DNA of 64,000 bases from Escherichia phage B9-1: the sequence record OQ420740.1; one strand, given 5' to 3'. Below the pieces are notes generated by a model. The model was not told the origin of the DNA. It saw only the letters and a program-made list of their open reading frames with translations, and made no database searches. Of this stretch, positions 4,280 through 58,388 are shown in pieces. Numbering within the stretch: the stretch's first letter is position 1; each line of letters starts with the position of its first letter. The position numbers and the translations under genes are program-made.

Positions 4280-6025
4280 ATGGCGCAAGACATGACAAGC
4301 TTTGAGCAGGCGGTAGATCAAGTAATTGTTGATTCTGAACGTTTGCACTTGGTTGTCAACGGCAACGCTGTGGATGAAGTTGTCGTAGAGGATGGGACCA
4401 CTATCCCTACGGTACGAAAAGCCATGCTTGACAACCTTTATTTTAAAACGCCACCGATCCCTTGGGCGTATGGTGCATCCACAACAGTTTTTAACCAGTT
4501 GTATGAGTTTAAAGGGGATACAGGCACTCAGTGGTGGTACGCCCCCGCAGCATCAAAATCTAACCCGGTTAGGATGCCAGCAGATCCTTCACAATCTCCG
4601 AACTGGAGATTATACACCGATTCTGCAGTAATGGCAAAATACTACGCAAAACTTAACAGCCCAAGGTTCGAAGGTGACCCGAGAGTACCTACACCTCCGA
4701 TGGATGATAAGTCAGAGTCTATAGCAAACACAGAGTTTGTTGTTGACTATGTGGATAGCATATTTAAAGCCATGGAGGGGATGAAAGTTACTGTAGGATC
4801 TTTGGTGGTAAAAGGTCTTACAGAACTTGCCAACACCATAGTTGGGGGCACCCTTACCTTACACGGACCTGTTAATGGAGCAGATTCTACTGCACGCTTC
4901 AGGAACCTAATCCTTACGGCAAATACTTCTACACTAACTTTTGCGTGGAGCGATCCTAAGCATGCAGACTGGAGAAGCACAGAGCTGCAACCTCATGAAG
5001 TATCAACTCACAGAGTTATAGCTGACACTATAACTTCTGGGAAACCAGTGGCTAATAACAACGATGTGCATTTTGATGGTCTAGGTAATAACTTTTTTGA
5101 CTACGTGTACATTCGTGGTAATGCCATGAAGGCAGCCACCGAACCGACATTGCAGGTTGATGGGACCACTAGGGTTAAGAACCTTGAGGTGACAGGCACC
5201 GTTACAGGGATAACCTACTCTGTAGATGGCACCATGATCTACCCTAGCTATATTGAAAGCACGGGAGATGCACTGATCAATGGAGATTTAGAGGTTGGTG
5301 GATCTATAGTCATTCGTGGCACAGCATCTGTCCAGAACATATCTTTAAATACTCTGAGGGTGAATGAGCGTGCCACTTTTGAAGGAGAGGGGCTTACAGC
5401 CAACAAAGGTGTAATTACCGAGCTGACAACCACCACTCTAACTGCAACAACTGCAAACTCTGAAAACTGCAACGTTACCAGAAACTTGCAGGTAAATGGA
5501 GATGTTAGTTTAAACGCAGCAGGGACGGGCACTACCTACCTTCACAACCTTGAAATATCAGGTACAGTGACTGGGTGGCTGCCAGACTTCTCTAATGTCA
5601 ACTTTGTCTGTAATGGCATTAACTCCAGTGGCAAGATAACCACCTCTCAAGAAATTGAAGCTGGTAAAACTATTACTGCCCCTGCTTTCCATGCAGGGAA
5701 GGTGGAGTTTGACTTAGAGGAGGCTGACGCATCTAGTGGGACATGGACACCTAACGGGCAGGCCAATATGTATGTTGTCCACGCGAAAGGGGATTTTACA
5801 ATAGGGCAATGGCCTGGAACATCGGCTGAAGATAAACCTTACCCGTTCACTGCAATCATCTATGTCATTCAAGATGCTGTAGGCCACAACGTGACTTTAC
5901 ACGATAAATATGCCATACTGTCGGCTACTCCTGTTATTAACAACAAAGCCAACAGTGTCACCTTGCTACAATTGACATATTGTGGTGTTGGTGATATTGT
6001 GGATGTGGTTATTGCACAACGTTAA
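4280..6025 (+). CDS. tail fibre / tail spike-like protein (beta-repeat rich)
   Basis: 581 aa; strong SD AAGGAGA; Gly/Thr/Asn-rich repeated segments (TGTVTGITYS, EISGTVTGW) typical of fibre shafts; in the fibre gene cluster. Confidence 0.55.
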   Translation: MAQDMTSFEQAVDQVIVDSERLHLVVNGNAVDEVVVEDGTTIPTVRKAMLDNLYFKTPPIPWAYGASTTVFNQLYEFKGDTGTQWWYAPAASKSNPVRMPADPSQSPNWRLYTDSAVMAKYYAKLNSPRFEGDPRVPTPPMDDKSESIANTEFVVDYVDSIFKAMEGMKVTVGSLVVKGLTELANTIVGGTLTLHGPVNGADSTARFRNLILTANTSTLTFAWSDPKHADWRSTELQPHEVSTHRVIADTITSGKPVANNNDVHFDGLGNNFFDYVYIRGNAMKAATEPTLQVDGTTRVKNLEVTGTVTGITYSVDGTMIYPSYIESTGDALINGDLEVGGSIVIRGTASVQNISLNTLRVNERATFEGEGLTANKGVITELTTTTLTATTANSENCNVTRNLQVNGDVSLNAAGTGTTYLHNLEISGTVTGWLPDFSNVNFVCNGINSSGKITTSQEIEAGKTITAPAFHAGKVEFDLEEADASSGTWTPNGQANMYVVHAKGDFTIGQWPGTSAEDKPYPFTAIIYVIQDAVGHNVTLHDKYAILSATPVINNKANSVTLLQLTYCGVGDIVDVVIAQR

Positions 6026-6033
6026 TATATCTG

Positions 6034-6060
6034 ACCGCTCCTGACGGGGCGGTTTTCTTA
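6034..6060 (+). terminator. putative rho-independent terminator
   Basis: Hairpin ACCGC...GCGGT followed by TTTTCTTAT directly after the stop of 4280..6025. Confidence 0.5.
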
Positions 6061-6073
6061 TCTGGAGAACACA

Positions 6074-9000
6074 ATGCTTCCAATCCCTTTGCTAAAACTT
6101 GGTCGTCATTTCCTCGATAAGAGGGGTGGAGTTAAGGAACTTGCTGTTCTGTCATACCCAATAGACAACAGTGACGGTACAAGCACTACAGTAGCTTATG
6201 TAAATAGCTTAGCTATACTTTTTGACGACGGTCAGCTTAATATTACTGGCTATAACAAGTTCGGGGAGTGTCGCACTGGGGATCGTAACCCTATAAACTA
6301 CCCGAGCGAGACGGCCTGGAATGTCGATCATGTGTGGAGAGCAGACCGTGCGTTTGTGATCCGGACTTTTGATAACCAGTTTTTCTACATCGGCTGCACT
6401 GCAGGTCTTATCGGATCCACTGCGGCAGGTGGTAACGATGTTTGCGTAAACGAGTGGACACCTCTTCCGGAACAGATTGTTCAAGGATTGCACCTTGACA
6501 CCCACCCAGAGCGCCTTATCGAGGTAATGGGTGGTATTAACAACACTGTTTGGGTTATGGCAGAGGCTGAGGGTGACGGCATTTTACACCTGTACGGGTC
6601 TGGTAACAACACCTACGGATCTTTACATGTAGATAAGAACCAGCATGCAACTCCTGTAAAGATTGGTGAAACATCAGAAAATCCTGAAACAGGCCCTTGG
6701 AAAAACCCAAGTATCAACTGCGAGGTGCATGACAACTCTGTTATTTTCGGTGGTCCTAGAGGTTTCTGGATTGCTGGGTACGACTTTCTGAGAAACAATA
6801 GTAGAAACACTCTCGTTTGGCCTCCTGCTCAGATTACCCGTGACGATTTGAGAGGAATTCCTGCAGATGAGGAGTGGAAAGGGTTCATGTGCGGTCCGAA
6901 TGGGGCAGTGGTTGCAACACAAAGAATGCACAGACCTGATGACCAACAACTTGTTAACGTATTTTATGGTCAAAACGTTTGGGGAGATGATACCTGGCGT
7001 GCTTTGAATATAACCTACACCCATGAGGTGATAATGGCTCGTGGGTACGGCACAAGTGGCATTTTCTTCAACAATGGTACTAAGCAGTATCGTGGCTTCT
7101 CTCGAAACCTGTGCAACGATATTGGCGCACAATCTGCAAACAATAATCCCCGTGCCGATTTTGTTCATTACCAGGCCCTTGCTACGGCCAAATATGTTGA
7201 GCAACGTTTGCCAGTTAGCTGGACAGAGAGTGTTTATTTCCAAGGCATCCATAGAGAAGGTTTTTTAGGGACCTTTACTGTTGTTAATGGTAAACTTTGG
7301 TGGTCAGGTATCCCAAGGGGAAGTTTTGCAGGCTCTAATAACCTGTTTGGCGGTAGACTTAATAGTCAAGGGTTCACAGAGGTTCCTGAGAATTGGTATA
7401 AAAATGTCCCAGTAGATAGTTGGGGTGTTGATGATATTTTTGACGTTAACGGTGTTAGCAGCGTTAGCAATATTTACATTGGTGACACGGTCAAGATGAA
7501 ATTGAAGCCTCAGCCAGAGGGGGCTACGTTCATTATTGACAAGATTGAGCTGGTAAATGCTGCGGGTACGGTTGTTACAGATGCAAATTACCAATTCTCC
7601 ACCAACTGGAACCACGGCGGGGCCAACGAAGTTGTTGTTACTCAGTATAACAGGAATGTTAACAGACGTGGCCTGTACTCTGTAAAAATAACCTATCATG
7701 ACAAGCATGGCACAGGAAGAACTCACACGACAAGGACTTTGAACTGGAACACCATAGTTCCTGCGTATCCTTCTGACGGTAAGTGGCATACCGTTGGTAG
7801 AAACAAGCAGTTCCATGTTAACGATACTGTATACTTCGGGCTGAATGGGACTCAGCCTGCGGTAGAAGGAGATACATCGTATATGGTCCGACTCCACAGA
7901 ATGGATGCTGGATCAGTCACCTATGATGTTACCCAAGAGATTTATGATCAGAGACGAAATACCTACAACAACTTAGTGCAGACACAGGCCGTATGGGAGT
8001 TCAACCCTAACGGCAGAGGCGGTAAAATGTTGCAGGTTAACGAGCAAAACGGAACGTCGTTGACTGTCCACGAACACCCAGACCCTTGGCCTGATCCTGG
8101 AAAACCTCACCCAGGTGCTCGTACACTGAAAATTGTCAGCCATGATGCAGGATATTTCGGAATACGCTGGGAAGCCACAGTAAGATATGCAGACGGGACA
8201 ACAAACAACATAGGGATTACACTTGGAGGCACCAGTGAAGATAGCTCTCTGAAAATTGCCTACACCCCTAGGGGCATCTCTATTGATAATATGGATGTTG
8301 TTCGCAATGGTTACGGCGATGTGAATGTCAAAGTTACTCTTGGCGAACATCTTGGTGGGGAAAGGATCATCATGTATGCCTTTGATCATGACCCGCGAAC
8401 CAATGGAACTTATGCAAATCAGGCATGGAGTTACCTGATAAATGCACCTGAGCCGAATACTAAAGAGTTCTACTACGGTATGAAGCGAGATGTATGCAAG
8501 AAAACAGGAACACATGACTGGATTGCTATCTGCGTTAAAGATGAGCGCACAGCTTGGGATGAGCCTGTTAATAGATGGTTCATAGGTATTCCTACCAGAA
8601 GCGATAAGTATATCGCAGAATACATTGTGTGCATGGGCGGTACCAACCTAAATATGTGTTGGAACGAAGATGCAAACAAATACTCTGATTATGACTATAT
8701 GAGAGATTACTCTTGTAATCAGTGGTTTAACCAATCAACAGGGTATCCTCCACGACAGGCGAGAGTAAACCCTGCAATCTTTACAGATACGCAGGTTTTC
8801 TTGACAAAACAGGCCAACGAGGTTCAGACCTTCAAGAACAAATACGACCCTAACAAGTGGTTTTATAACTGTTATGGCGCATTTTTCTGGGGTCCTGGCG
8901 AACTGCCTAATGGAGGATCTTGCTTCGAGGCTGCAACTTACGCCAGTGACAGGTTCATGGGGCAGGTTAAGAAGTACAAGATAATCCCAGGGCCTGAAAC

Positions 9001-25475: not shown

Positions 25476-26681
25476 ATGATTTTCATCTACGAACATTTCA
25501 AAACTCGTAAAGAAGCACGTGACCGCCGTGCAGAACTTGAGAAGAAGGGTTTCACATGCGCTATTGAGAAAGGTAACACAACCTGGACACTGGCAGTAGG
25601 TGCCCCAGAGTTGTTCGATCCTGACCGTGACAGCGTCTGCTACACCCGTGAGGATTTTGAAACCCGTGAAGAGGCCCGTTTATTTCGATATGGGCTGGAA
25701 GATAACGGTAAGTACGCCATGATCTTAGATTTAGGAGAAGGTTCCGTTAAACGTTGGGGTGTGGTATATCCACTGTGTGTTGTTCACGGTGTAGGGTTCA
25801 CTGGGGTAGCAATCAAGTCAGAAGAACCTTTAGTAGAAGTAAAAGACCCGGTGCTGGAGGTGGTGAGCAGTGTGTCTCAGCAACAGACCCGAAGCATCGA
25901 GCCTTTGGTGGTTATTTGCGGGGAACTCCTCCAGATCACCTGCAACGAAGGTATTTTTGAAATTCGCCGCAGTGAAAGTGAGGAAGTTTACCAGAAAGTC
26001 TTCGACCATATCTCTGTTCAGGAATATGACGAGGCAATTGGTGAAATCCTTGTCTGGCTGGAACGCAAGAATGAGTTCACCACACTTGCAGACAACCTGA
26101 TCATGAAAGATGGTAAGCTCTACTACTACGGTGTAGAGATGCGATCCACCATTGCAAAGAAAATTGAGAAAGATTATGCAGACGGAACACTGGATGACCG
26201 CTATGTGAAATTCCTCGTTCGCCTGCTACGCAATCCTTCTGCAAAATCTGTAAACATGCTCTACGATTTTATGCAGGCAAACGACATTCAGATTGCAGAA
26301 GATGGTCGAATCATTTGCTACAAAGGGGTTCAGTTTAACGGCGACAAGTGGGTGGATTGGCACAGTGGTAAAGTCCCACAATACCAGGGGGCTTTTGTAT
26401 CCATGCCTCGTAACTTTGTAGAGGATGATCCGGAAGCTGCATGCTCTTATGGCCTGCACTGTGCCAGCAAAGAGTATGCAAAGAGCTACGGAACTGTGAT
26501 GACGGTTATGGTTGACCCTGCCGATGTAGTTAGTGTACCTTACCAACACAACAGCGCCAAGTGCCGTGCATGCCGCTACGAAATCGTAGTAGCTCCAGAA
26601 TCGCGCAAAGATGGCGACCCAATTGAGTACGTGGTTGACCGCGACGGTAATACTATCGACATTATCTACGAGGAGGCGTAA
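25476..26681 (+). CDS. hypothetical protein (rIIB-like by position only)
   Basis: ATG 25476 with SD AAGGAGA (track start 25440 overlaps the upstream gene); two ~35-aa N-terminal repeats (TRKEARDRRAELEK / TREEARLFRYGLED). Confidence 0.55.
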   Translation: MIFIYEHFKTRKEARDRRAELEKKGFTCAIEKGNTTWTLAVGAPELFDPDRDSVCYTREDFETREEARLFRYGLEDNGKYAMILDLGEGSVKRWGVVYPLCVVHGVGFTGVAIKSEEPLVEVKDPVLEVVSSVSQQQTRSIEPLVVICGELLQITCNEGIFEIRRSESEEVYQKVFDHISVQEYDEAIGEILVWLERKNEFTTLADNLIMKDGKLYYYGVEMRSTIAKKIEKDYADGTLDDRYVKFLVRLLRNPSAKSVNMLYDFMQANDIQIAEDGRIICYKGVQFNGDKWVDWHSGKVPQYQGAFVSMPRNFVEDDPEAACSYGLHCASKEYAKSYGTVMTVMVDPADVVSVPYQHNSAKCRACRYEIVVAPESRKDGDPIEYVVDRDGNTIDIIYEEA

Positions 26682-28051
26682 TGGAAAAAGGGCAGTACGA
26701 TGTAGGCACAGATGCTGCCCTTGTTGCAATCATGAGCGGTGAGAATGTCTTCGTAAGTGGACCTGGTGGAACCGGGAAGACATATCTTATCAACATGATC
26801 CAGTCCATGTATGGAGACTCTTGCATAACGGTTGCCCCGACAGGGGTAGCCGCTTTAAACGTTAATGGAGCAACAGCGCACCGAACTTTCGATCTTGCCG
26901 CAGGTGTGAGCATGGAGTCAGACTGGACAGCAATAAGGGCAAAAACAGCAAAGCCTCTGAAAAGCAAGGCATTTACCATCCTGATTATCGATGAAATCTC
27001 TATGATCCGTGCTGACAAGTTCATAGAGATGGATAGAAAACTCCGCTTTCTTCGGAAAAATGACAAACCTTTCGGAGGCATTCAGGTGTTATTGTTTGGA
27101 GATTTCTACCAAGCACCTCCAGTTGTCTCTTCTATGGAGAAAGAAGCCTACTTCAACTTCTACCACACAGACCTGTGTTGCTATACAGAATCTTGGGAGG
27201 ATCTTAATCTTCACAACATAGCCTTAGTAGACCAGTTCCGTCAGGAATCTGTTCGCTTCGCCACAATGTTGAACTGTGTTCGTGAAGGTCGTCGCATAAA
27301 AGAGGTTGTAGCAGAGCTTAACACTCGTTGCTATCATGGTGGTGTCCCAACAGATGCCTTGACCATCTGTGCCACCAATAAGCAAGCAGAGGAGGTGAAC
27401 AGACGTTTCTATGATGCCATCAAGGCCCCAGAGAAGACCTACATTGGTAAAATGAAAGGTAAGTTCCCTTCCACACTACCTGTGGAGCAGGAAATGAGGC
27501 TGAAGATAGGGATGAAGGTTATGATAACCTCAAACGATGTTGACCCTACTCACAAAGTTCCGTATTATGTTAACGGGACACGTGCCACAGTGGTAAAATT
27601 CAAGACCAAATCCGTAGTAGTTGAGCTAGAAGACGGAACACAGGTTGAAATTGAGCCAAGATTGTGGGAGAATAACGAGTACAAACCTTCCCAGAGGTAC
27701 AATATTGCCGAAAGGAAGATGGAGAAGTTCATAGAGAGGGTTGTGATCGGGTCTTATGAGCAACTTCCTTTGAAATCTGGGTACGCAGTAACATCGCATA
27801 AAAGTCAAGGACTTACGTTAGATTGTTACAACCTAGACCTCGGAAAGAACGGAGCTTTCTCTCCCGGAATGACGTATGTTGCCTTGAGTCGGGTTAAGAC
27901 GATACAAGGAATAAACTTGTTGCGTCCATTAAGAGAGGTGGATATTATTGTTGACCCGAGAGTCGTAGAGTTTTATAATACAACTTTCCCTGGCTTAGAC
28001 GAGAAAGTCAGGAAAGATTTTGAAACTAGAGCAGAAAAGGGGGACGTATGA
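26681..28051 (+). CDS. dda: Dda-like SF1 DNA helicase (RecD/Pif1-like)
   Basis: 456 aa; Walker A GPGGTGKT, Walker B IIDEISM, C-terminal helicase motifs (VTSHKSQG, YVALSRV). Confidence 0.75.
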   Translation: MEKGQYDVGTDAALVAIMSGENVFVSGPGGTGKTYLINMIQSMYGDSCITVAPTGVAALNVNGATAHRTFDLAAGVSMESDWTAIRAKTAKPLKSKAFTILIIDEISMIRADKFIEMDRKLRFLRKNDKPFGGIQVLLFGDFYQAPPVVSSMEKEAYFNFYHTDLCCYTESWEDLNLHNIALVDQFRQESVRFATMLNCVREGRRIKEVVAELNTRCYHGGVPTDALTICATNKQAEEVNRRFYDAIKAPEKTYIGKMKGKFPSTLPVEQEMRLKIGMKVMITSNDVDPTHKVPYYVNGTRATVVKFKTKSVVVELEDGTQVEIEPRLWENNEYKPSQRYNIAERKMEKFIERVVIGSYEQLPLKSGYAVTSHKSQGLTLDCYNLDLGKNGAFSPGMTYVALSRVKTIQGINLLRPLREVDIIVDPRVVEFYNTTFPGLDEKVRKDFETRAEKGDV

Positions 28052-28450: not shown

Positions 28451-29794
28451 ATGAGTAAAACCAAATTAGAACTTACCTGGATAGGTAAGAACGAGCGCAA
28501 AAAGCTAGAGCCTCACATTTTGCGAGAAGATTCGAGCAAGTCTTATCACGCCAGTAAAAAGGTGACCGAAAACGATATTTTTGATAATAAACTGATTTTT
28601 GGAGATAACTTACTGGCATTGAAGGCACTAGAGCAAGAGTATGCAGGCAAAGTGAAGTGTGTTTACATAGACCCGCCATTTAATACCGGAAGGGATTTTG
28701 AGCACTACGATGATAGCCTGGAGCACTCCATTTGGCTGGGCTTAATGCGGGACAGATTAGAAATAATTCGTAATCTGCTAAGCGATGATGGAGTGATATT
28801 CGTTCACTTAGATGACTGCGAAATGGCTTATTTAAAAGTCTTGATGGACGAGATTTTTGGTCGTGCAAATCAGTTAAATACCATATCGATGACTACAAAT
28901 TGCCCTTCAGGCTTTAAGGCAACAGGAACTACAGTTTTCTCCACAGCAAACTTTTTGCTTGTATATGCAAAAGATCGTACCAAGAAACCACTTAACAAAA
29001 TCTATATACCTAAAGAGTATGATACGGGATATAACAAATATCTATTAAACCCAGATGACCATTATAAAAGTTGGACGTGGTGCGGTATTGCCGATGCGTT
29101 TGCAAAGGCCAATGGCTATAAAGATACAAAAGAAGCCAAGAAAAAACTGCCTGATACATTTGATGATGAATTAGCACAATTTGCAATTGATAATGCAGAA
29201 CGTGTATTTCAATCCGTTGCAATTGGCGGTGGTGCCAAAATAAAGAGAAAAGAAACTATCGAGAAGTCAAAGAAAGATAGGGATAAGGTTTATGTACATC
29301 CAAATGAGGATGTCGAAGGCTTTTATATCGCAAATGGTAGGCAAATGGTCTTTTATTCCAATAGGCTTTTGGAAATTGACGGTGAGATGCAGCCTGCTGA
29401 ACTAATAACTGATGTTTGGACTGACATTAGTTGGAATGGAATAGCAAATGAAGGGGGCGTTAGTTTCAAAAATGGAAAAAAACCTGAAGCGCTTTTGAAG
29501 CGGATTTTAAAAATGTGTACGCGAGAAGGAGATTTAGTATTGGATTCATTCGGCGGTTCGGGGACTACTGCTGCTGTAGCTCACAAGATGAAAAGACGTT
29601 GGATCTCTGTTGAGCTAGGAGATCATTGTCATACCCATATTATTCCACGCTTGCAAAAAGTGATCGATGGTGAAGATCAAAGTGGTATTTCTAAATCTGT
29701 AAACTGGCAAGGTGGTGGGGGCTTTCGTTATTACAAACTTGCCCAGAACTTAGTTGTGAAAGATAAGCTTGACTCAGAAGAAGATTTAGAGTAA
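28451..29794 (+). CDS. DNA methyltransferase (beta-class N6-adenine/N4-cytosine, Mod-like)
   Basis: 447 aa; catalytic motif IV DPPF (VYIDPPFNTG) near the N-terminus and SAM motif I FGGSGTT near the C-terminus (beta-class order). Confidence 0.7.
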   Translation: MSKTKLELTWIGKNERKKLEPHILREDSSKSYHASKKVTENDIFDNKLIFGDNLLALKALEQEYAGKVKCVYIDPPFNTGRDFEHYDDSLEHSIWLGLMRDRLEIIRNLLSDDGVIFVHLDDCEMAYLKVLMDEIFGRANQLNTISMTTNCPSGFKATGTTVFSTANFLLVYAKDRTKKPLNKIYIPKEYDTGYNKYLLNPDDHYKSWTWCGIADAFAKANGYKDTKEAKKKLPDTFDDELAQFAIDNAERVFQSVAIGGGAKIKRKETIEKSKKDRDKVYVHPNEDVEGFYIANGRQMVFYSNRLLEIDGEMQPAELITDVWTDISWNGIANEGGVSFKNGKKPEALLKRILKMCTREGDLVLDSFGGSGTTAAVAHKMKRRWISVELGDHCHTHIIPRLQKVIDGEDQSGISKSVNWQGGGGFRYYKLAQNLVVKDKLDSEEDLE

Positions 29795-31097: not shown

Positions 31098-31862
31098 TTG
31101 AAATTTATCTACAAAGAACACTACCACAAAGGTGTTGTGTGGAGTCTATTTGACGGGTCTGGTGGTGCAGTTATTGACTGGGCAAAAGCTGGATATCTGT
31201 GCCTGTGCTTTAACGCAGAAGGTGCTGACCATGGCAGTTATGCAGAGGTGATAACCGATCATCCCAACATTCACTACGTGGATTATTGGATTGACCCGTG
31301 GTTCCCTCAAGAAACTTTTTGCATGTACCCAGCTCCAGACTTTATTCTTGCATTTCCTCCGTGCACGCATTTAGCAGTATCAGGTGCTGCACATTTTAAG
31401 AAAAAGCTGGCTAAGGACCCTCTGATTCAAATTAATGCTGTAAAAGATGCTCGGGTTGCAGAAGAGTTGGGAGAGATTTACGATTGCCCGTGGCATGTAG
31501 AGAATCCTGTGGGAGTTATGTCCACACTGTGGCGAAAACCTGATTACCGTTTTCATCCTTCAGATTATGGCGGGTATTTACCGGAGGATGATGTAAACCC
31601 CTGGTTTCCTGAATTTATAGCTCCACGGGATGCCTACCCAAAAATAACTTGCGGTTGGATAGGCAATGGATTTATAATCCCCGCCACAAAACCTGTCCCG
31701 CAAATAGTTGATGTGGTTAGTGGTTATTCCATGCAACACGCTAAGCTAGGTGGAAAGAGTGCAAGGACGAAGATGATTCGAAGCCTTACACCACGTGGCT
31801 GGGCAAGAGCTGTATTCTTAGCAAACGAGCCTGCAGTAAGGAGAAGAATTAATGGGCAGTAA
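31098..31862 (+). CDS. C5-cytosine methyltransferase-like protein (minimal catalytic domain)
   Basis: TTG start after SD AGGAGA; ordered motifs LFDGSGG (motif I-like), FPPCTHLAVSG (PC, motif IV-like) and ENPVG (motif VI-like); only ~255 aa with no obvious target-recognition domain. Confidence 0.45.
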   Translation: MKFIYKEHYHKGVVWSLFDGSGGAVIDWAKAGYLCLCFNAEGADHGSYAEVITDHPNIHYVDYWIDPWFPQETFCMYPAPDFILAFPPCTHLAVSGAAHFKKKLAKDPLIQINAVKDARVAEELGEIYDCPWHVENPVGVMSTLWRKPDYRFHPSDYGGYLPEDDVNPWFPEFIAPRDAYPKITCGWIGNGFIIPATKPVPQIVDVVSGYSMQHAKLGGKSARTKMIRSLTPRGWARAVFLANEPAVRRRINGQ

Positions 31863-33930
31863 ATTCATGGCATCTGCATACAACCGTTTCGGTGAGCCAA
31901 ACCCGAAAGCAACTAAGTATAAAAGTGGGGGAAGTGTGAAACGAGACTATCGTGATGAAAAAGAAGTTGAAACTGTAGAGACTGTTTTAGAAAATACTAA
32001 AATTGTCCCTGTTCCACAACAAAATATTGGACTGATGGCTGCACAATATTTTGGTGTACGATCATCGCTATCCCAAGAGGATGGTGTAACTGTTACTGCC
32101 ACCTACTTTCCGTATTACGACCGCTACGGTAATCTATCTGGCTTTAAAAAGCGTGACTGGACAATCCCTAAAGAGCAAAGGGGCCATTTCTCGGTTGTCG
32201 GCATAGTAAAGGCCAACTCCCAGATGTTTGGTCAAAAGCTGTGTGCATCCTCCAACAACCGCAAGCAGATTAACGTTTGTGAGGGGGAAGGGGATGTTAT
32301 TGCAGCGTGGCAGGCTGCATATCAGGTACAAGTAAAAGGAATTCTCACCAATGCTAAAGCCCCAGCGAAGGTGAAGCAGTGGGCTAAAGAAGTCCAGGAT
32401 GGGATCGATGCAGTTATCAACGGCGGCGATCTTGCAGGAAAACCATGCCTGCCTTTTGTTGGAATTAACTGCGGGTGTGCAAACGCAGTAGACACTTTTG
32501 CGAACAATGAGAAATTTATCCGTAGCTACGGAACAGTAGTCCTTGCAATGGACAACGATGCAGCTAACGAGGTAGAGAAGCAAAAACACGTTATCAAAGG
32601 TGTTGAAGCTACGCATAATATCGCAGCATTTTTGATGGCTGACAACGTTTACCACGTGGAATACCCAGGTGAGGTAAACGACCCTGATGGTGTAAAAGAT
32701 ATTCGTGACATGCTGAAGGCTAAAAAGCTGGAAGATATTGTCAACATGTTCCGTCACCCAGTCAAATATGTGCCTGATGCTGTATCTGATTTAGAAGACT
32801 TCTCCATTGAATCTCTTCGTAAGAAGACTTCCAATGGCGTGGATATTAGTGCAGAGTTCCCTAAACTGCAGAAGATGCTGAAAGGACTCCACAAAGGCAC
32901 CTTGATGATGCTGACAGGCCCGTCTGGCGGTGGTAAAACAACTGTAGCCAAGAAGCTGGAACATTGCATTGCAAGATACTTGATGGATCCAACATGCCCT
33001 AAAGCTGATGATTATGAAGAGGATGATCGCCTGTGCCTGATTCACCTTGAAGAGGATCCTGAGGAAGCAATCAACTCTCTGTACGCTAACCAGCTGGGGT
33101 TTGATGTTAAAGAGTTTGTTGAAGACCCCAGTCAGTTCCTGACCGATCAGGAGCACGCTGAGATTCATCAATCTTGGGCCAAGGCCGGAAAAATCAAAGT
33201 GTTCAAGCATTTCGGCTCCATCCCTGTAGATGAGCTGATCACTAAGCTTAAACAAATGGTGTGCCTGTATCACTGCCGTTACATTGTGCTGGATCACTTG
33301 TCTATGGTGATTTCAGGGCTTAATGTTAAGGATGAGCGTAAAGAGCTTGACATGGCTATGACTCAACTAGCCGCGTTCTGTAAGCAGTTTAATGTGTTTA
33401 TCTTGGTGATTGCTCACCTGAAGCGCACAGAGATTGTACCTCCGAAGGATAAGGATGGAAATCCGTTACCTTTCTGGTACCCTGTACGAAAAGAGAACCT
33501 TCGCGGTAGTGCCGGATTGGAGCAACTTAGCTGGGTGGTTGTCGGGGTAGAGGCAGAGGAGATGGTGGATCGTTCCCGTGGACGTGTCCGACTGGTAGGT
33601 CTTAAAAACCGCCCAGCAAAAACCTTAGGTATTGCGGACACTCTAGTTATGGATCCTCACACAGGCAAGTTCCATGATGCCAGCAACTGGTACTGGGACA
33701 AAGAAATGCAGATGTTTACAGACGGGGAAGGTGGGGAGGTTGTTTGGAGACCTCAGGCTATGTTTGAGGATCAGGAGCATGCAGTTGTAGAAACACCTGT
33801 GGGCAAGGTTGTGGCTGATAAGGTTGTAACTCCTACTGTTAACCCTGTTGACACACAGGAAGACCTTCAGTATGATGATCCGTCCTCTAACCACGTTCCG
33901 GGTTTTGAAGACGACGAAACACCTTTTTAA
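31852..33930 (+). CDS. DNA primase-helicase (TOPRIM + DnaB-like helicase)
   Basis: 692 aa; TOPRIM signatures VCEGEGD and LAMDNDAAN; helicase Walker A GPSGGGKTT and Walker B IVLDHLS. Confidence 0.7.
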   Translation: MGSKFMASAYNRFGEPNPKATKYKSGGSVKRDYRDEKEVETVETVLENTKIVPVPQQNIGLMAAQYFGVRSSLSQEDGVTVTATYFPYYDRYGNLSGFKKRDWTIPKEQRGHFSVVGIVKANSQMFGQKLCASSNNRKQINVCEGEGDVIAAWQAAYQVQVKGILTNAKAPAKVKQWAKEVQDGIDAVINGGDLAGKPCLPFVGINCGCANAVDTFANNEKFIRSYGTVVLAMDNDAANEVEKQKHVIKGVEATHNIAAFLMADNVYHVEYPGEVNDPDGVKDIRDMLKAKKLEDIVNMFRHPVKYVPDAVSDLEDFSIESLRKKTSNGVDISAEFPKLQKMLKGLHKGTLMMLTGPSGGGKTTVAKKLEHCIARYLMDPTCPKADDYEEDDRLCLIHLEEDPEEAINSLYANQLGFDVKEFVEDPSQFLTDQEHAEIHQSWAKAGKIKVFKHFGSIPVDELITKLKQMVCLYHCRYIVLDHLSMVISGLNVKDERKELDMAMTQLAAFCKQFNVFILVIAHLKRTEIVPPKDKDGNPLPFWYPVRKENLRGSAGLEQLSWVVVGVEAEEMVDRSRGRVRLVGLKNRPAKTLGIADTLVMDPHTGKFHDASNWYWDKEMQMFTDGEGGEVVWRPQAMFEDQEHAVVETPVGKVVADKVVTPTVNPVDTQEDLQYDDPSSNHVPGFEDDETPF

Positions 33931-54992: not shown

Positions 54993-55412
54993 ATGAACAT
55001 TAAATCTGATAATCCGGCATATAGCTTTGATAACGCTTTTTGTCACGGTCCGGCGGCGAAAGGATTCGAAATCGATGGTAAACTAGTTATTGTTAATGTT
55101 GACGGGGAAGAGGTTGCAGTATATCCGGTGGCAGACGTTAAAAGCCGTCTACAATGCCGCATGGATGTTACCGCCTACCAGCTTGATCCGGTCCGGGTAG
55201 TTGCCCTAGTCCTGGAAGAAGAAATTAAAGCAATGCACCACAGCAACAAGTTTATTGGTGACGCTCAAGATAATATGCAGGTATGCCGCCATAAAGTTAA
55301 TGAAGTACTTAAAGAGTACGGCTATAAGGATTTAATGATCAAGCGTGATGAAAAATTCCGTTACCGTAACGACCTGGCAAATCGGATTTTTGAAATATAC
55401 GAATCATTATAA
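54993..55412 (+). CDS. hypothetical protein
   Basis: 139 aa, SD TAAGAGG; last gene of the rightward array. Confidence 0.55.
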   Translation: MNIKSDNPAYSFDNAFCHGPAAKGFEIDGKLVIVNVDGEEVAVYPVADVKSRLQCRMDVTAYQLDPVRVVALVLEEEIKAMHHSNKFIGDAQDNMQVCRHKVNEVLKEYGYKDLMIKRDEKFRYRNDLANRIFEIYESL

Positions 55413-55430
55413 TTTCTTAACTGAATTATC

Positions 55431-55458
55431 AAGGGGCTTAAAGGCCCCTTTCTTTTTG
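55431..55458 (+). terminator. rho-independent terminator
   Basis: AGGGGCTTAAAGGCCCCT hairpin followed by TTCTTTTTG, 20 nt after the stop at 55412. Confidence 0.7.
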
Positions 55459-56074
55459 TCTGCTCTTCTCCTACCATAAACGGCCCTACCTGGCAAGTGG
55501 AATAATTGACTAGCCATCAATCCCACACACTGTACAAATATACATATAAAATAACTATTGCATAATCTTTCACTGTGTGGTAGCAGGGCCATTTTTACCC
55601 GTTTTCTCTCCCAAAAGTGCACGTAATGCCGCTATTGCACAAATTTTAACCTGATGCACATCTCCAATATCTTGTCAACAACTAAAAATCTTTATAAGTC
55701 ATACACTTACACAACATAGAAAGCGTGTCCTACGCGAAAAATCGAGTATAACTATAGCCGCCAGATCTCAGAATTCACGTACGAACACCATTCTATAGTC
55801 TGCAAAGTATTTATTCCAACCACAGAATAACGGAATAGTCAATACCTGCATAAAATAATTATTCGTGTAAACTGCATAACATAAATCAGCTCAGGTGTCA
55901 ACATTTTTCGTAAACAGTCCGAAATTATCACGATGAGTTATCATAAACAGAGAAATCTTTAGTCGTCTAATGTTTACTGTACATTACTATACTGACTGGA
56001 ATCATTAGATGACTAAGAGAAAGATAAGAAATAATTAATAATGTAATTGTTTTACCTGTAACAATAAGGCAACT

Positions 56075-56094
56075 ATGCAAACGAATGGCATGGC
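56075..56094. repeat. 20-bp direct repeat, copy 1
   Basis: ATGCAAACGAATGGCATGGC, identical copy 213 bp downstream. Confidence 0.6.
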
Positions 56095-56213
56095 GCGACG
56101 GAGTCGCGACATAATATAAAAGCAGTAACAATCACCCCCGTGATAGTTTTTCTGCAATCTATTACTCAGATCATAGTTGCCTTGTATTTAGTTAATCATG
56201 ACATAACAAGCAA

Positions 56214-56241
56214 GGCAACTATAGATCTTCTAATAGTTGCC
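56214..56241. repeat. 28-bp palindrome
   Basis: GGCAACTAT AGATCTTCTA ATAGTTGCC: perfect 9-bp inverted arms; the same arm sequence (AGGCAACTAT / ATAGTTGCCT) also occurs at ~56066 and ~56172. Confidence 0.55.
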
Positions 56242-56287
56242 CTGCTTTTATATTATGTCATAGATTGTTAGCTTGTTAATTGTTTTC

Positions 56288-56307
56288 ATGCAAACGAATG
56301 GCATGGC
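56288..56307. repeat. 20-bp direct repeat, copy 2
   Basis: ATGCAAACGAATGGCATGGC. Confidence 0.6.
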
Positions 56308-56333
56308 TTATCATCTCTGTGTAAACTGTTCAG

Positions 56334-56359
56334 GCGTAAACAGTCTATGCGTAAACAGT
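56334..56359. repeat. tandem 11-bp iterons (GCGTAAACAGT x2; third copy at 56653-56663)
   Basis: GCGTAAACAGT at 56334-56344 and 56349-56359, preceded by inverted partial TGTAAACTGTT; third copy at 56653. Confidence 0.55.
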
Positions 56360-57866
56360 GAGATATGGAATAGTAACAGCCGTTATTGTGTCATATTGTG
56401 TGACATTGTGTCCGGTGTCTGGTGTCCAGTGTGTCAGACAAGTTTTTCTCCTCTTTGTCAAGTGCTGCATGAAAAATTTACAAACTGGTATGGTAGCATT
56501 TTTGCGGCCCTGTTTACATTCAGGAATGTATGTATAATCCTTGTTGTGTGGGCGTTTAGACGTCTGGACGGTCAGAAGTCTGCAGGTCAATATCTAATCT
56601 ATTGGTTGCTAACTATATCCCACACAAATAGTAAGAAATATAATTGTTATATGCGTAAACAGTAACCCATGTTATCAATCCCTGCATGTATCGCCAGTGG
56701 TGCGCATAATGGGTATTATGTTAAATTGCCCGTAATGATAACCATTCTCACAATGATAGGTATTCTCATTCACTCCCACAAGATAGATTGCAAATGTTGT
56801 GCCACTGTGTGAACGGCCTGGCCTATTAATTTGCCTCACTGCCTCGATATTTGAGAATTATTATAAAAATGAGAAGTATTCCCATTCCGTCCGCCTGGCA
56901 GCACTCCTGTAGGACAGGCACAAAATCGGGGTATAACTGGACCTGTTCAGATATTTCTGGCTGACTCTTCAGGCCTGTGTGGGAAAAGCCAACCTCTCCG
57001 GCGGCGGGGAGGGGTCAATTAAAAAATTTACGTGGTGTATGAAGCGCTCTTCAGGTAAGGCAGGTATTATGGGATGAAACCCTCTTCAGATGATGATATT
57101 TGTGGGTGTGATATTTGCTGGAAAGCCAGATATGACGGGACTCCCGGCAGGGGTGGGGTAGTACAGACAGGGAAAATGTGGGAATGTGATGGAGTAAATT
57201 GATCAGGTAGGTAGGATATGGAATATGTTACAAGTATGTTAAATATGGAGGTAGGATATTTGTAAGATTTGTGTGTAAAATCAAATACTTAAGTGGTGTT
57301 GTGGTATTTTCTATAAATAATTCAAGTTTAATAGGTGATATTTGTCTCCATCCACTTTGTGTGGTAAACAGATTCTAATTGAATTGGTTTACAAGTGTAT
57401 ATAAAGTATACAAATTAAAGATATAAGAAACCCCCCTCCCCCTTCGGCTACCATTCACCTTTTCCTCTGACTGGTACTTAAACACTTATTCAGACTCTTC
57501 AGGTTATCACCCATATACTATATGGCAGTGACTGGTGTCCTCCGGCCCCTCTTTCGTCACCCGTCCGCTTCGCCATGCTAATGCCATAGCCAAATGTTCG
57601 GTTGTTCACCCTGTTCACTCAGGTGTATCTCCATACCCCTTCAAACCGAAGAGAACAGAAAACCCGAATTACTCGGTAAAAGAAAAGAGAAGAACTTAAT
57701 TTTATCAAGATAGGCAAGAATGTCAAGGGATGACTGCTCACTAAACAAGCAAACAGTCATGTGTGGTGGGTAAGTAACTGTGTTGGTAGGAAATTTAGTT
57801 GAAAGATGTTATAGGTGCCTCCAGAACCTTAGCTGGGCAGCTAAACCTGCAAAGCAGACTTGTGTG

Positions 57867-58082
57867 TCAGTCCAAAGGTTCATCTACTACTTCACTGAAA
57901 TCAATGGTCAGAGTCTCTTCCCAACCATCAATCTCAGCACCGGAGTAGAGATCTTTAGGGTCTACATCAAGGGCTTCCGCAACAGCATCTATATTTAACA
58001 CCTCTGGCAGGTATGATTCATCAAATTCAAGGTAAATCAGGCCACGAGTGTTGTCAGCCCCACCAAATATTTCTATTTTCAT
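57867..58082 (-). CDS. small acidic protein
   Basis: ATG 58082 with strong SD GAGGAG (track start 58148 is a GTG without SD); 71 aa, Asp/Glu-rich. Confidence 0.5.
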   Translation of the reverse strand: MKIEIFGGADNTRGLIYLEFDESYLPEVLNIDAVAEALDVDPKDLYSGAEIDGWEETLTIDFSEVVDEPLD

Positions 58083-58202
58083 GAAATCTCCTCTGGAAAT
58101 GAGAGTGTGAACGGGGTTTATACGTTCCAATACGATGGAATTATGCACGTTTGCCTCTTCAGGCCATGCTTTAGCATGATAAACTTATGTGGGCTCGGTG
58201 CT

Positions 58203-58388
58203 TCATAGTCTCCCACCTCTGAACTCTTCGTGCTCAGGCATAATAGAGAACCAGATGGCTATGATATCTTCCCACGTTAGGTCATCAGCCTCAGGATCCA
58301 CCTGGGACGGAGATAGAGAATCCTCAGAATTGAAGTTTTCCTCTGTCACCCCTTCAGATGTCTCTTTAGATGCATGTGTGTTGGTCAT
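58203..58388 (-). CDS. small acidic protein (uncertain)
   Basis: 61 aa ORF, Glu/Asp-rich like neighbours, weak SD. Confidence 0.35.
   Translation of the reverse strand: MTNTHASKETSEGVTEENFNSEDSLSPSQVDPEADDLTWEDIIAIWFSIMPEHEEFRGGRL

Follow-up and report, generated by a model that had tools for sequence, protein, structure and literature searches.

Terminal repeat and conserved non-coding arms at the probable joined genome ends of a Vequintavirus coliphage

Genome ends described in other systems

The closest described systems are the direct terminal repeats (DTRs) of phages EdH4, HdK5 and Gotham (458/459 bp; MK327930, MK373780, MT682716; Korf et al. 2019, PMC6563267). For EdH4 and HdK5, PacBio reads were found to end abruptly and a terminal redundancy of 458 bp was reported (PMC6563267). 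In phage rV5, the same locus corresponds to the box marked 'non-coding' (Kropinski et al. 2013, PMC3606486). Published work neither links this box to the genome termini nor describes the elements that flank the repeat, of which we found no description in the literature. The window analysed here, i.e. the whole stretch of 64 kb, belongs to a Vequintavirus (rV5-like) coliphage and shares 90-97% identity with 121 Vequintavirus records. It carries the repeat of EdH4, HdK5 and Gotham at the same locus, with 90-97% identity, the same borders and the same flanking genes. Nothing essential differs from the published locus, and the repeat is present once in the window because the assembly was opened elsewhere.

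A more distant parallel is the T7/T3 junction, which, in the accounts of Dunn and Studier from 1983 and Chung and Hinkle from 1990, reportedly comprises a terminal repeat of 160-230 bp, flanking short-repeat arrays and phiOR reading to the right end. The locus studied here resembles it in having a short exact terminal repeat in a gene-free junction, adjacent short-repeat arrays, nearby palindromic elements and a right-arm promoter directed to the genome end. However, there is no sequence similarity, the present phage is a myovirus whose genome has 137 kb, and its promoter belongs to the host sigma-70 class and not to the phage-polymerase one. Its arms are also much longer (~1 kb each), and transcription runs outward in both terminal gene blocks.

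A DTR of 514 bp is known from Klebsiella phage KPP-1 (Vequintavirinae, Mydovirus), where coverage of it is two-fold and PhageTerm gave a T7-type call (PMC9862379). As in our window, this DTR occupies a sparse gap on which gene blocks converge, and a few hundred bp outside one of its borders there is a dyad whose site is repeated four-fold. Nevertheless, neither the DNA nor the flanking proteins show detectable homology, and KPP-1 lacks both GGGGNGGGG runs and any counterpart to the invariant block described below. Since the flanking proteins lack homology, the arms of KPP-1 cannot be matched to those analysed here. Synteny across genera through a conserved 101-aa flanking protein was also considered and abandoned, as the gene is not beside a gap in 4MG, CR8 and Hena1.

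Finally, transcription is terminated at CSB II of human mtDNA (GGGGGAGGGGGGGTTTG), where a hybrid G-quadruplex/R-loop primer is formed (PMC4176368, PMC3488243). The G5AG6T3 run of the right arm resembles CSB II/OriH in being carried by the non-template strand, between an upstream promoter and a downstream AT-rich region. The likeness spans only 15 nt, and the polymerase here would be the bacterial multisubunit enzyme.

The gene-free stretch and the terminal repeat

The gene-free span covers 55413-57866 (2.45 kb), slightly more than the 55460-57860 of the initial annotation, which had seen no credible gene in it. Our analysis agrees, as neither codon-position pattern, ORF integrity nor a PHROG search gave a coding signal. 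The share of substitutions at third codon positions was 0.21-0.45 in the ORFs of the gap vs 0.48-0.77 in the flanking genes, the majority of the gap ORFs are disrupted in relatives, and none of them matched a PHROG family. Hidden protein genes were ruled out on these grounds, and the conserved protein-coding gene that would have spoken against the initial annotation was looked for and not found. For the 93-aa ORF at 57867-58148, which overlaps the 71-aa gene limiting the stretch on the right, the third-position share was 0.59. A search for tRNA and tmRNA genes found none, Rfam 15 gave no matches in the 64-kb window at the gathering score, and the sole match in the gap at E<=1 was mir-4 (E=0.8), which is at chance level. 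The AT-richness noted initially is mild overall (GC 0.396 vs 0.436 in the window), although two genuine troughs, at 55850-56050 and 57200-57436, have a GC of 0.27-0.31. The features of the stretch are collected in Table 1. The terminator at its left limit is likewise annotated in the records of EdH4, Gotham and Alma.

Table 1. Position, strand and main attributes of the features in and beside the gene-free stretch
Feature	Position	Strand	Attributes
Left subterminal arm, non-coding	55413-56058		92% conserved; GC 0.356; AT trough 55850-56050; one CGTAAACAGT at 55909
Intrinsic terminator, hairpin AAGGGGCTTAAAGGCCCCTT then T-run	55431-55460	+	End of the + strand gene block
Dyad element, 249 bp	56059-56307		Candidate protein-recognition site (terminase or origin)
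Hypervariable short tandem arrays	56308-56431	+	15-nt GTAAACAGTCCAGGC, 10-nt TATTGTGTCA, 7-nt GTGTCCG; abut the left DTR border
Direct terminal repeat, 459 bp	56437-56895		Once here, probably at both ends of virion DNA; 94.7% conserved
Largely conserved 12 nt outside the right border	56896-56907		56896 and 56897 vary in three relatives; indel hotspot at 56908
Two paralogous G-rich units and GATATTTG words	56955-57165	+	CTCTTCAG ... TGTGGG ... AAGCCA ... CTCC(C)GGC ... GGGGNGGGG
AT-rich trough, GC 0.295	57200-57436		GC skew sign change ~57380; GTAAACAG word at 57364
G5AG6T3 run (GGGGGAGGGGGGTTT on the - strand)	57428-57442	-	3' edge of the invariant block
Invariant block, 264 nt, no ORF signal	57437-57700	-	Candidate untranslated transcript or transcription-dependent DNA element
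Near-consensus sigma-70 promoter TTGACA-16-TGaTAAAAT	57699-57726	-	Reads into the invariant block
Last gene of the - strand block, 71 aa	57867-58082	-	Right limit of the gene-free stretch; annotated in relatives

The records of EdH4 and Gotham carry an exact 459-bp copy at each end, annotated as a repeat_region in Gotham, and in both cases the two copies map to the DTR of the window. The left end of EdH4 aligns with 56895->55432 and its right end with 58048->56437, so that the overlap consists of the repeat only; in the collapsed sequence of the window a single copy lies at the junction with both arms contiguous. The Pr121LW record was opened exactly at 56437. In total, 56437 or 56895 is the first or last position of at least eight records produced in different laboratories (EdH4, Gotham, Pr121LW, bov10K2, bov22_2, YN3, ECP2303 and Aya), some of which may have been re-opened to match earlier ones and not independently determined. 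The borders read TGTGTCA/GACAAGTTTTT on the left and CCGTCCGCC/TGGCAGC on the right, and conservation shifts sharply at both. A cut-site motif shared by the two borders (GYCA/GRC) was dropped, as relatives differ from one another in the outer half of the right site.

Homology shows the position of the repeat and its exact borders, and we infer the ends of the present phage from relatives that are ~95% identical in the repeat and have the same borders. Very probably, therefore, the stretch is the place where the ends of a linear Vequintavirus genome with short DTRs are joined (concatemer junction). The genome terminus or packaging site proposed in the initial annotation is thus borne out by the physically determined ends of relatives. 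This reading is well supported and already present in the literature and GenBank, and it is an ordinary one since the repeat had been reported for close relatives. The apparent convergence of the two gene blocks results from the genome ends being joined, with the DTR collapsed to one copy in the assembly. Placing the DTR fixes the true start and end of the genome, prevents the spurious annotation of small ORFs, as found in some records, and shows phage engineers which DNA is needed for packaging.

On this reading, virion DNA starts and ends with the same 459 bp, one copy being carried by replicating concatemers as by the collapsed assembly, and both terminal gene blocks are transcribed outward to the physical ends, hence appearing to converge on the repeat. 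By analogy with the T7-type scheme, terminase may recognise sequences at or near the junction and cut at the two fixed borders, DNA synthesis would duplicate the repeat to give a full copy at both ends of each packaged genome, and after infection the repeats could allow concatemers to form again from daughter genomes. The non-coding arms, of ~1 kb on either side, are expected to bear the cis-acting signals. On the left these would be the hypervariable arrays touching the cut site and the dyad with its invariant sites 130-380 bp away, and on the right the promoter-driven invariant block, followed by the G-run and the AT-rich trough. The large terminase gene was not found among the large ORFs scanned. 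It is very unlikely that the region is instead the start of headful (pac) packaging with partially permuted ends, as PhageTerm called ('headful, partially permuted') for Vequintavirus BpE1AUH in a 2026 paper (PMC13211470). That conflicting call derived from a mixed cocktail, whereas long reads stop abruptly at the borders, and the 459-bp repeat is far shorter than headful redundancy. Instead of permuted ends with a long, variable terminal redundancy, we found the repeat exact and its borders fixed and identical in at least eight records.

Elements of the two arms

All repeats listed in the initial annotation were recovered where it had placed them, and they are real and enriched. The two copies of the 20-nt direct repeat ATGCAAACGAATGGCATGGC, at 56075 and 56288, are 100% identical. 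The iterons comprise three GCGTAAACAGT words (56334, 56349 and 56653) and a fourth, CGTAAACAGT, and all copies of the word in the 64-kb window lie in the region (P=2e-6). The reiterated ATTGTGT and GTGTCC runs are tandem, with TRF calls at 56384-56432, and CTCTTCAG occurs four times (56965, 57047, 57082 and 57495) among 12 copies in the window (P=8e-4). An unbiased search gave GTAAACAG as the top enriched 8-mer, with six of its seven window copies in the gap (P=2e-8). These words, 8-10 nt long and irregularly spaced, are spread across 1.5 kb, and two of them lie in the DTR, at 56510 (- strand) and 56655 (+ strand).

The 28-bp palindrome that had been described around a central AGATCT (56214-56241) is present as an inverted repeat; however, it is interrupted (9+10+9; arms GGCAACTAT and ATAGTTGCC, spacer AGATCTTCTA), is not centred on AGATCT, and belongs to the larger 249-bp dyad of the left arm. 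The GGCAACTAT core is found at four sites of the dyad, in the form of CAAGGCAACTAT or a close variant of it, with the orientation +,-,+,- (56065-56076, 56173-56184, 56211-56222 and 56233-56244). The dyad also includes a perfect inverted repeat of 18 nt (56108-56125 / 56242-56259) and both copies of the 20-nt direct repeat (56075-56094 and 56288-56307), and its ssDNA fold has a z of -7.3. The repeat units are invariant in 15 relatives, and the spacers accept insertions of 6-50 bp. A second - strand promoter (56279->56252; 10/12 with TG), considered as operator-controlled, was downgraded because insertions split its -35 and -10 in most relatives. A plasmid source of the dyad was discarded, as the single plasmid match is in fact a phage genome that had been deposited among the plasmids. 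In the tandem arrays that follow, the mean identity to relatives falls to 0.53, with both copy number and sequence changing, and conservation returns ~5 nt before the left DTR border.

In the right arm, the G-rich units have a strongly positive GC skew, and relatives keep their G-runs as GGGGCAGGGG. The trough contains one match to a DnaA box (57272) beside one to an IHF site (57279), which are the only such host-factor matches near the AT troughs. The G5AG6T3 run differs in length by 1 nt among relatives. The sigma-70 promoter, read 57726->57699, is kept in 14 of 15 relatives, and 20 of the 21 promoter sites in the window that are equally good share their orientation with genes. The block that it reads into has an identity of 98.4% over 15 relatives, being the most conserved part of the 5.3 kb compared, and block and promoter together are at least 96.7% identical over 118 records. 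It extends from the predicted transcription start to the G-run beside the trough. Its substitutions are evenly distributed over codon positions (3, 4 and 3), and thus give no coding signal. In HdK5 it lies 1.0-1.3 kb from the right genome end. A host source was rejected, as no match to E. coli was found.

Possible roles of the arm elements

The origin and the non-coding RNA locus that the initial annotation had offered as alternatives may apply to sub-elements of the flanks, namely the dyad and the invariant block. The roles proposed for individual arm elements are terminase recognition, replication initiation and an untranslated RNA. With respect to the left arm, we consider it unlikely that the dyad and the adjacent AT-rich DNA constitute an iteron-type origin bound by a phage initiator and not a packaging signal. 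The four invariant cores (12 bp with flanks), the direct and inverted repeats, the very strong cruciform potential, the adjoining trough (GC 0.27-0.32) and the analogous, non-homologous dyad close to the KPP-1 DTR are all in favour of an origin. However, the sites form inverted pairs, unlike plasmid- or lambda-type origins, in which iterons are arranged in tandem at regular spacing; a series of evenly spaced direct repeats of ~17-22 bp was not found, there is no initiator gene beside the dyad, and no similarity to plasmid origins was seen. Moreover, a distance of 130-380 bp from the cut site would suit a terminase recognition site equally well. As for the right arm, origins that combine a promoter with AT-rich DNA, such as T7 phiOR/phiOL, T4 oriF/oriG, ColE1 and mitochondrial OriH/CSB II, work by transcript priming. 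A transcription-primed origin in this arm, possibly besides its role at the terminus, must be regarded as doubtful. Host RNA polymerase starting from 57726->57699 would make a G-rich RNA of ~265 nt, which might stall or stay hybridised at G5AG6T3 and prime synthesis into the trough, a scheme that we likewise hold to be improbable. It would account for a conserved near-consensus promoter that reads into non-coding DNA, with no ORF downstream and the AT-rich region (57200-57436) beyond, as well as for a block running from transcription start to G-run. The near identity of the run to CSB II, the trough with its skew change directly downstream and its DnaA and IHF matches, the concentration here of the window's three GGGGNGGGG motifs, all facing the trough, and the PIF1-type helicase encoded by the phage point the same way. 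On the other hand, the likeness to CSB II is a post hoc observation, DnaA and IHF have a single match each, in AT-rich DNA, the KPP-1 gap has no GGGGNGGGG run, and the invariance of all 264 nt would be left unexplained. GC skew was rejected as evidence of an origin since it follows the direction of transcription, a coincidence already noted by the rV5 authors (PMC3606486).

Alternatively, the block may be a discrete functional untranslated RNA of ~265 nt transcribed from the same promoter, with a regulatory, scaffold or anti-defence role and only an incidental location at the genome end; we put this forward tentatively, as possible though not probable. Its conservation exceeds that of protein genes even at would-be synonymous positions, its edges match the predicted start site and the G-run, and it has no coding signal. 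Folding is better for the - than for the + strand (z -1.9 vs -0.3), polymorphisms that are common lie in predicted loops, and pairs are preserved in five one-sided changes. Yet the z-score is weak, and among only ~11 variable positions there are no compensatory changes and three that disrupt predicted pairs. In addition, the block matches no Rfam family and has no intrinsic terminator, and a relaxed blastn search with the block alone found no match outside the genus. Combining the two possibilities for the right arm, block, sigma-70 promoter and CSB II-like end may represent an undescribed functional RNA element of Vequintavirus, which would act either as a replication primer ~1 kb from the right end through an OriH-like G-run/R-loop or as a stand-alone regulatory or packaging-linked RNA, with the dyad as the matching terminase or initiator site. 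This combined proposal is speculative and, in our view, rather unlikely.

Should the flanks prove to hold the start of replication, the site recognised by terminase or a novel phage RNA, this would provide the first cis-acting map for a widely used group of therapeutic and typing coliphages. The block itself, with its strong host-type promoter and no ORF, is near-invariant across 118 phages and more strictly conserved than any neighbouring gene. Exact-word scans for copies diverse enough for a covariation analysis returned only two loci in IMG/VR and five in metagenomes, all of them near-identical.

Terminal repeat and its borders

Several related records start or stop inside the region. Korf et al. 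reported "short terminal redundancies of 458 bp" in two Vequintaviruses, EdH4 among them (PMC6563267). Comparison of both ends of the EdH4 and Gotham records revealed an exact 459-bp copy at each end, labelled as repeat regions in the latter record, and in both cases the copies map to 56437-56895 of the window. The left end of EdH4 runs on to 55432 and its right end arrives from 58048, the repeat being the only overlap. Moreover, the Pr121LW record (deposited in 2018) opens exactly at 56437 with one repeat copy, the borders are common to bov10K2, bov22_2, YN3, ECP2303 and Aya, and in HdK5 the invariant block of the right arm lies 1.0-1.3 kb from the right end. Because the EdH4 and Gotham end copies and the borders of the other records map to the gap, we take it to be where the two ends of the genome meet, the B9-1 assembly having reduced the direct terminal repeat to a single copy. 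The gene blocks described as converging would then be the two terminal blocks, both transcribed outward. Among the options raised in the initial annotation (replication origin, packaging site or genome terminus, non-coding RNA locus), the second was thus right, and the position of the repeat and its borders may be counted as shown by homology.

Alignment of 15 relatives over 5.3 kb lent independent support. Conservation of the gap was 0.90 overall, equal to or above that of neighbouring genes, and the repeat itself reached 0.947. Identity falls to 0.53 in the 124 bp directly outside the left border, where short-repeat arrays differ among relatives in copy number and sequence, and conservation returns about 5 nt ahead of the border. 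At the right border, 12 largely conserved nucleotides are followed by an indel hotspot. Such abrupt changes exactly at both mapped borders are as would be expected for functional cut sites.

Both borders (56436/56437 and 56895/56896) fall within small interrupted palindromes (GTCA/GAC and GCC/TGGC, slash at the border), and both repeat ends read inward as G-Y-C-A/G-R-C. This motif is of doubtful significance, since three relatives, rV5 among them, vary in the outer half of the right site. Escherichia phage I29 (ON286975) carries about 600 bp extra after the equivalent of 56907. In this insert, right-arm sequence leads through a perfect palindromic turn-around (GGGGAAATTGATCAGACAGGTAGAGTATGCATACTCTACCTGTCTGATCAATTTCCCC) to a second partial repeat copy; this is either a genome-end assembly artefact or a genuine snap-back rearrangement.

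Coding content and repeats of the gap

The claim that no credible gene occupies the gap was borne out. The share of substitutions at third codon positions was 0.21-0.45 for gap ORFs against 0.48-0.77 for flanking genes, the majority of these ORFs were disrupted in relatives, and none matched a PHROG family, ruling out hidden protein genes. Searches for tRNAs and for Rfam families found none, and host- or plasmid-derived DNA was tested and rejected as a source of the gap elements. Given the lack of coding signal, the 12-18 tiny "hypothetical proteins" annotated here in NHEP1 and Mangalyan represent over-annotation. The final gene bordering the left arm (54993-55412, + strand, 139 aa) shows an identity of 0.69 among relatives, far below the 0.92-0.96 of the adjoining non-coding DNA; its substitutions nonetheless fall mainly at third codon positions. 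The + strand block up to the left arm also carries the replication module (26681-28051, 31852-33930 and 28451-29794), comprising a PIF1-like helicase, a DnaB-like helicase and a DNA methylase.

All of the repeats noted initially were recovered, namely the 20-nt direct repeat (56075 and 56288), three GCGTAAACAGT iterons plus a fourth CGTAAACAGT, ATTGTGT / GTGTCC tandem runs and four CTCTTCAG motifs. The palindrome is present, albeit as a 9+10+9 interrupted inverted repeat, and the reported AT-richness holds for two real troughs but is only mild overall (GC 0.396 vs 0.436). Motifs exceeded chance in the window: 3.8% of the sequence holds all four copies of CGTAAACAGT, four of five of GGCAACTAT, all three of GGGGNGGGG and four of 12 of CTCTTCAG. 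In an unbiased word count, GTAAACAG ranked top, with six of its seven copies inside the gap (P=2e-8). Outside the gap, a fifth CTCTTCAG stands before TGTGGG at 58155-58195, reproducing the composite unit of the right arm; it occupies an intergenic spacer flanked by two - strand genes (57867-58082 and 58203-58388). GATC is scarce in 55460-57860 (4 copies, where the 313 of the whole window predict 11.7); the phage methylase (28451-29794) is of the N6/N4 type.

Elements of the flanking arms

Coordinates of the gap and of elements in its two non-coding arms
Feature	Position	Description
Gene-free span	55413-57866	true limits of the gap
Dyad	56059-56307	249 bp, left arm
Two paralogous G-rich units	56955-57165	right arm
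AT-rich trough	57200-57436	GC 0.295; GC skew changes sign
Invariant block	57437-57700	264 nt
Predicted promoter	57726->57699	near-consensus sigma-70, TTGACA-16-TGaTAAAAT

Within the dyad, GGCAACTAT core sites of alternating orientation occur four times, each in the form CAAGGCAACTAT or close to it; a perfect inverted repeat of 18 nt and the direct repeat of 20 nt also lie there. As single-stranded DNA the dyad folds far better than shuffles (z=-7.3). Across 15 relatives no repeat unit varies, while the spacers tolerate insertions of 6-50 bp. Such a pattern suits sites for protein binding or DNA structure rather than an RNA or a gene, and the dyad could be a recognition site for a terminase or a replication initiator alike. 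A predicted promoter within it was discounted because the same insertions part its -35 and -10 in relatives. One 33-bp insertion (TAAACTCAGGCA.AGCCTTCGTCTC.AGG.TGT), located in the central spacer at 56203/56204, occurs in rV5, MG065658 and a third record (L010), with repeat units intact.

Over 15 relatives the invariant block is 98.4% identical; when its promoter is included, identity across 118 records is no lower than 96.7%. The predicted start site coincides with the beginning of the block, no ORF lies downstream of the promoter, and the block terminates in GGGGGAGGGGGGTTT, transcribed sense. Sites of equal quality are good promoter predictors in the window, where 20 of the 21 point in the same direction as genes.

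The block may encode a stand-alone RNA: its - strand has a fold somewhat more stable than shuffled sequence (z=-1.9, against -0.3 for the + strand) and frequent polymorphisms fall in predicted loops. However, among the few changes seen in relatives none is compensatory and three break predicted pairs; no homologue was found outside the genus. A primer-forming transcript of an origin is only a lead. The G5AG6T3 run of the block almost matches CSB II of human mitochondria, GGGGGAGGGGGGGTTTG, a motif that halts transcription and forms a hybrid G-quadruplex/R-loop priming replication, an effect also obtained with T7 RNA polymerase (PMC4176368, PMC3488243). The AT-rich trough beyond the run contains a single match each to the DnaA box and the IHF site, and the phage encodes a PIF1-type helicase, but the resemblance was spotted post hoc.

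Packaging and earlier records of the locus

T7 provides the established scheme for phages whose terminal repeats are short and exact, and its own repeat has short-repeat arrays alongside. Terminase would cut concatemers at fixed sites flanking the single junction copy, DNA synthesis would duplicate the repeat to place a copy at each end of every packaged genome, and the repeats would afterwards let daughter genomes rejoin. We infer cutting and duplication in B9-1 from this scheme. The hypervariable arrays of the window resemble those of T7 and are treated as a putative by-product or spacer beside the cut site. Headful packaging has been suggested for one Vequintavirus, sequenced from a mixed cocktail (PMC13211470), but is at odds with fixed borders in many records.

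In a second genus, Mydovirus, the 514-bp repeat of Klebsiella phage KPP-1 is supported by doubled coverage and was classed as T7-type by PhageTerm (PMC9862379). According to its record, this repeat likewise lies in a sparse 1.8-kb gap with converging blocks on both sides, and 300-650 bp outside one border there is a dyad that combines a perfect 21-nt inverted repeat with the site ATGATAA-N3-TTATCAT, present four times. KPP-1 and the window have no sequence homology; the layout is common, the sequences are not.

In rV5, the genome map shows a grey "non-coding" box without ORFs, and a skew change is listed at nucleotides 104425-105475, which its authors linked to transcription direction and not to an origin (PMC3606486); it falls within 104021-106630 of the rV5 record, matching the gap region. 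As the Vequintavirus terminal repeat and the rV5 box are already published or annotated, our main finding is known and ordinary. The literature searched contained no link between that box and the termini, nor any description of the flanking elements. The latter merit experimental work, above all the invariant block with its promoter and the dyad with its invariant sites.

A DNA search with 2.5 kb around the junction matched 121 phage records (90-97% identity), all of the genus Vequintavirus (rV5-like coliphages) except some unverified "Campylobacter phage" entries. A more sensitive search returned exactly the same 121, so the stretch is specific to the genus at the DNA level. Nineteen UNVERIFIED "Campylobacter phage" records (GenBank MG0656xx, e.g. 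MG065658) show about 93% identity to rV5-like coliphages here, and their host label is probably wrong. Finally, CP057073.1 in PLSDB (5999-6496, 88% identity to the gap), filed as a 137,565-bp E. coli "non-mobilizable plasmid", is evidently a Vequintavirus genome submitted as a plasmid.
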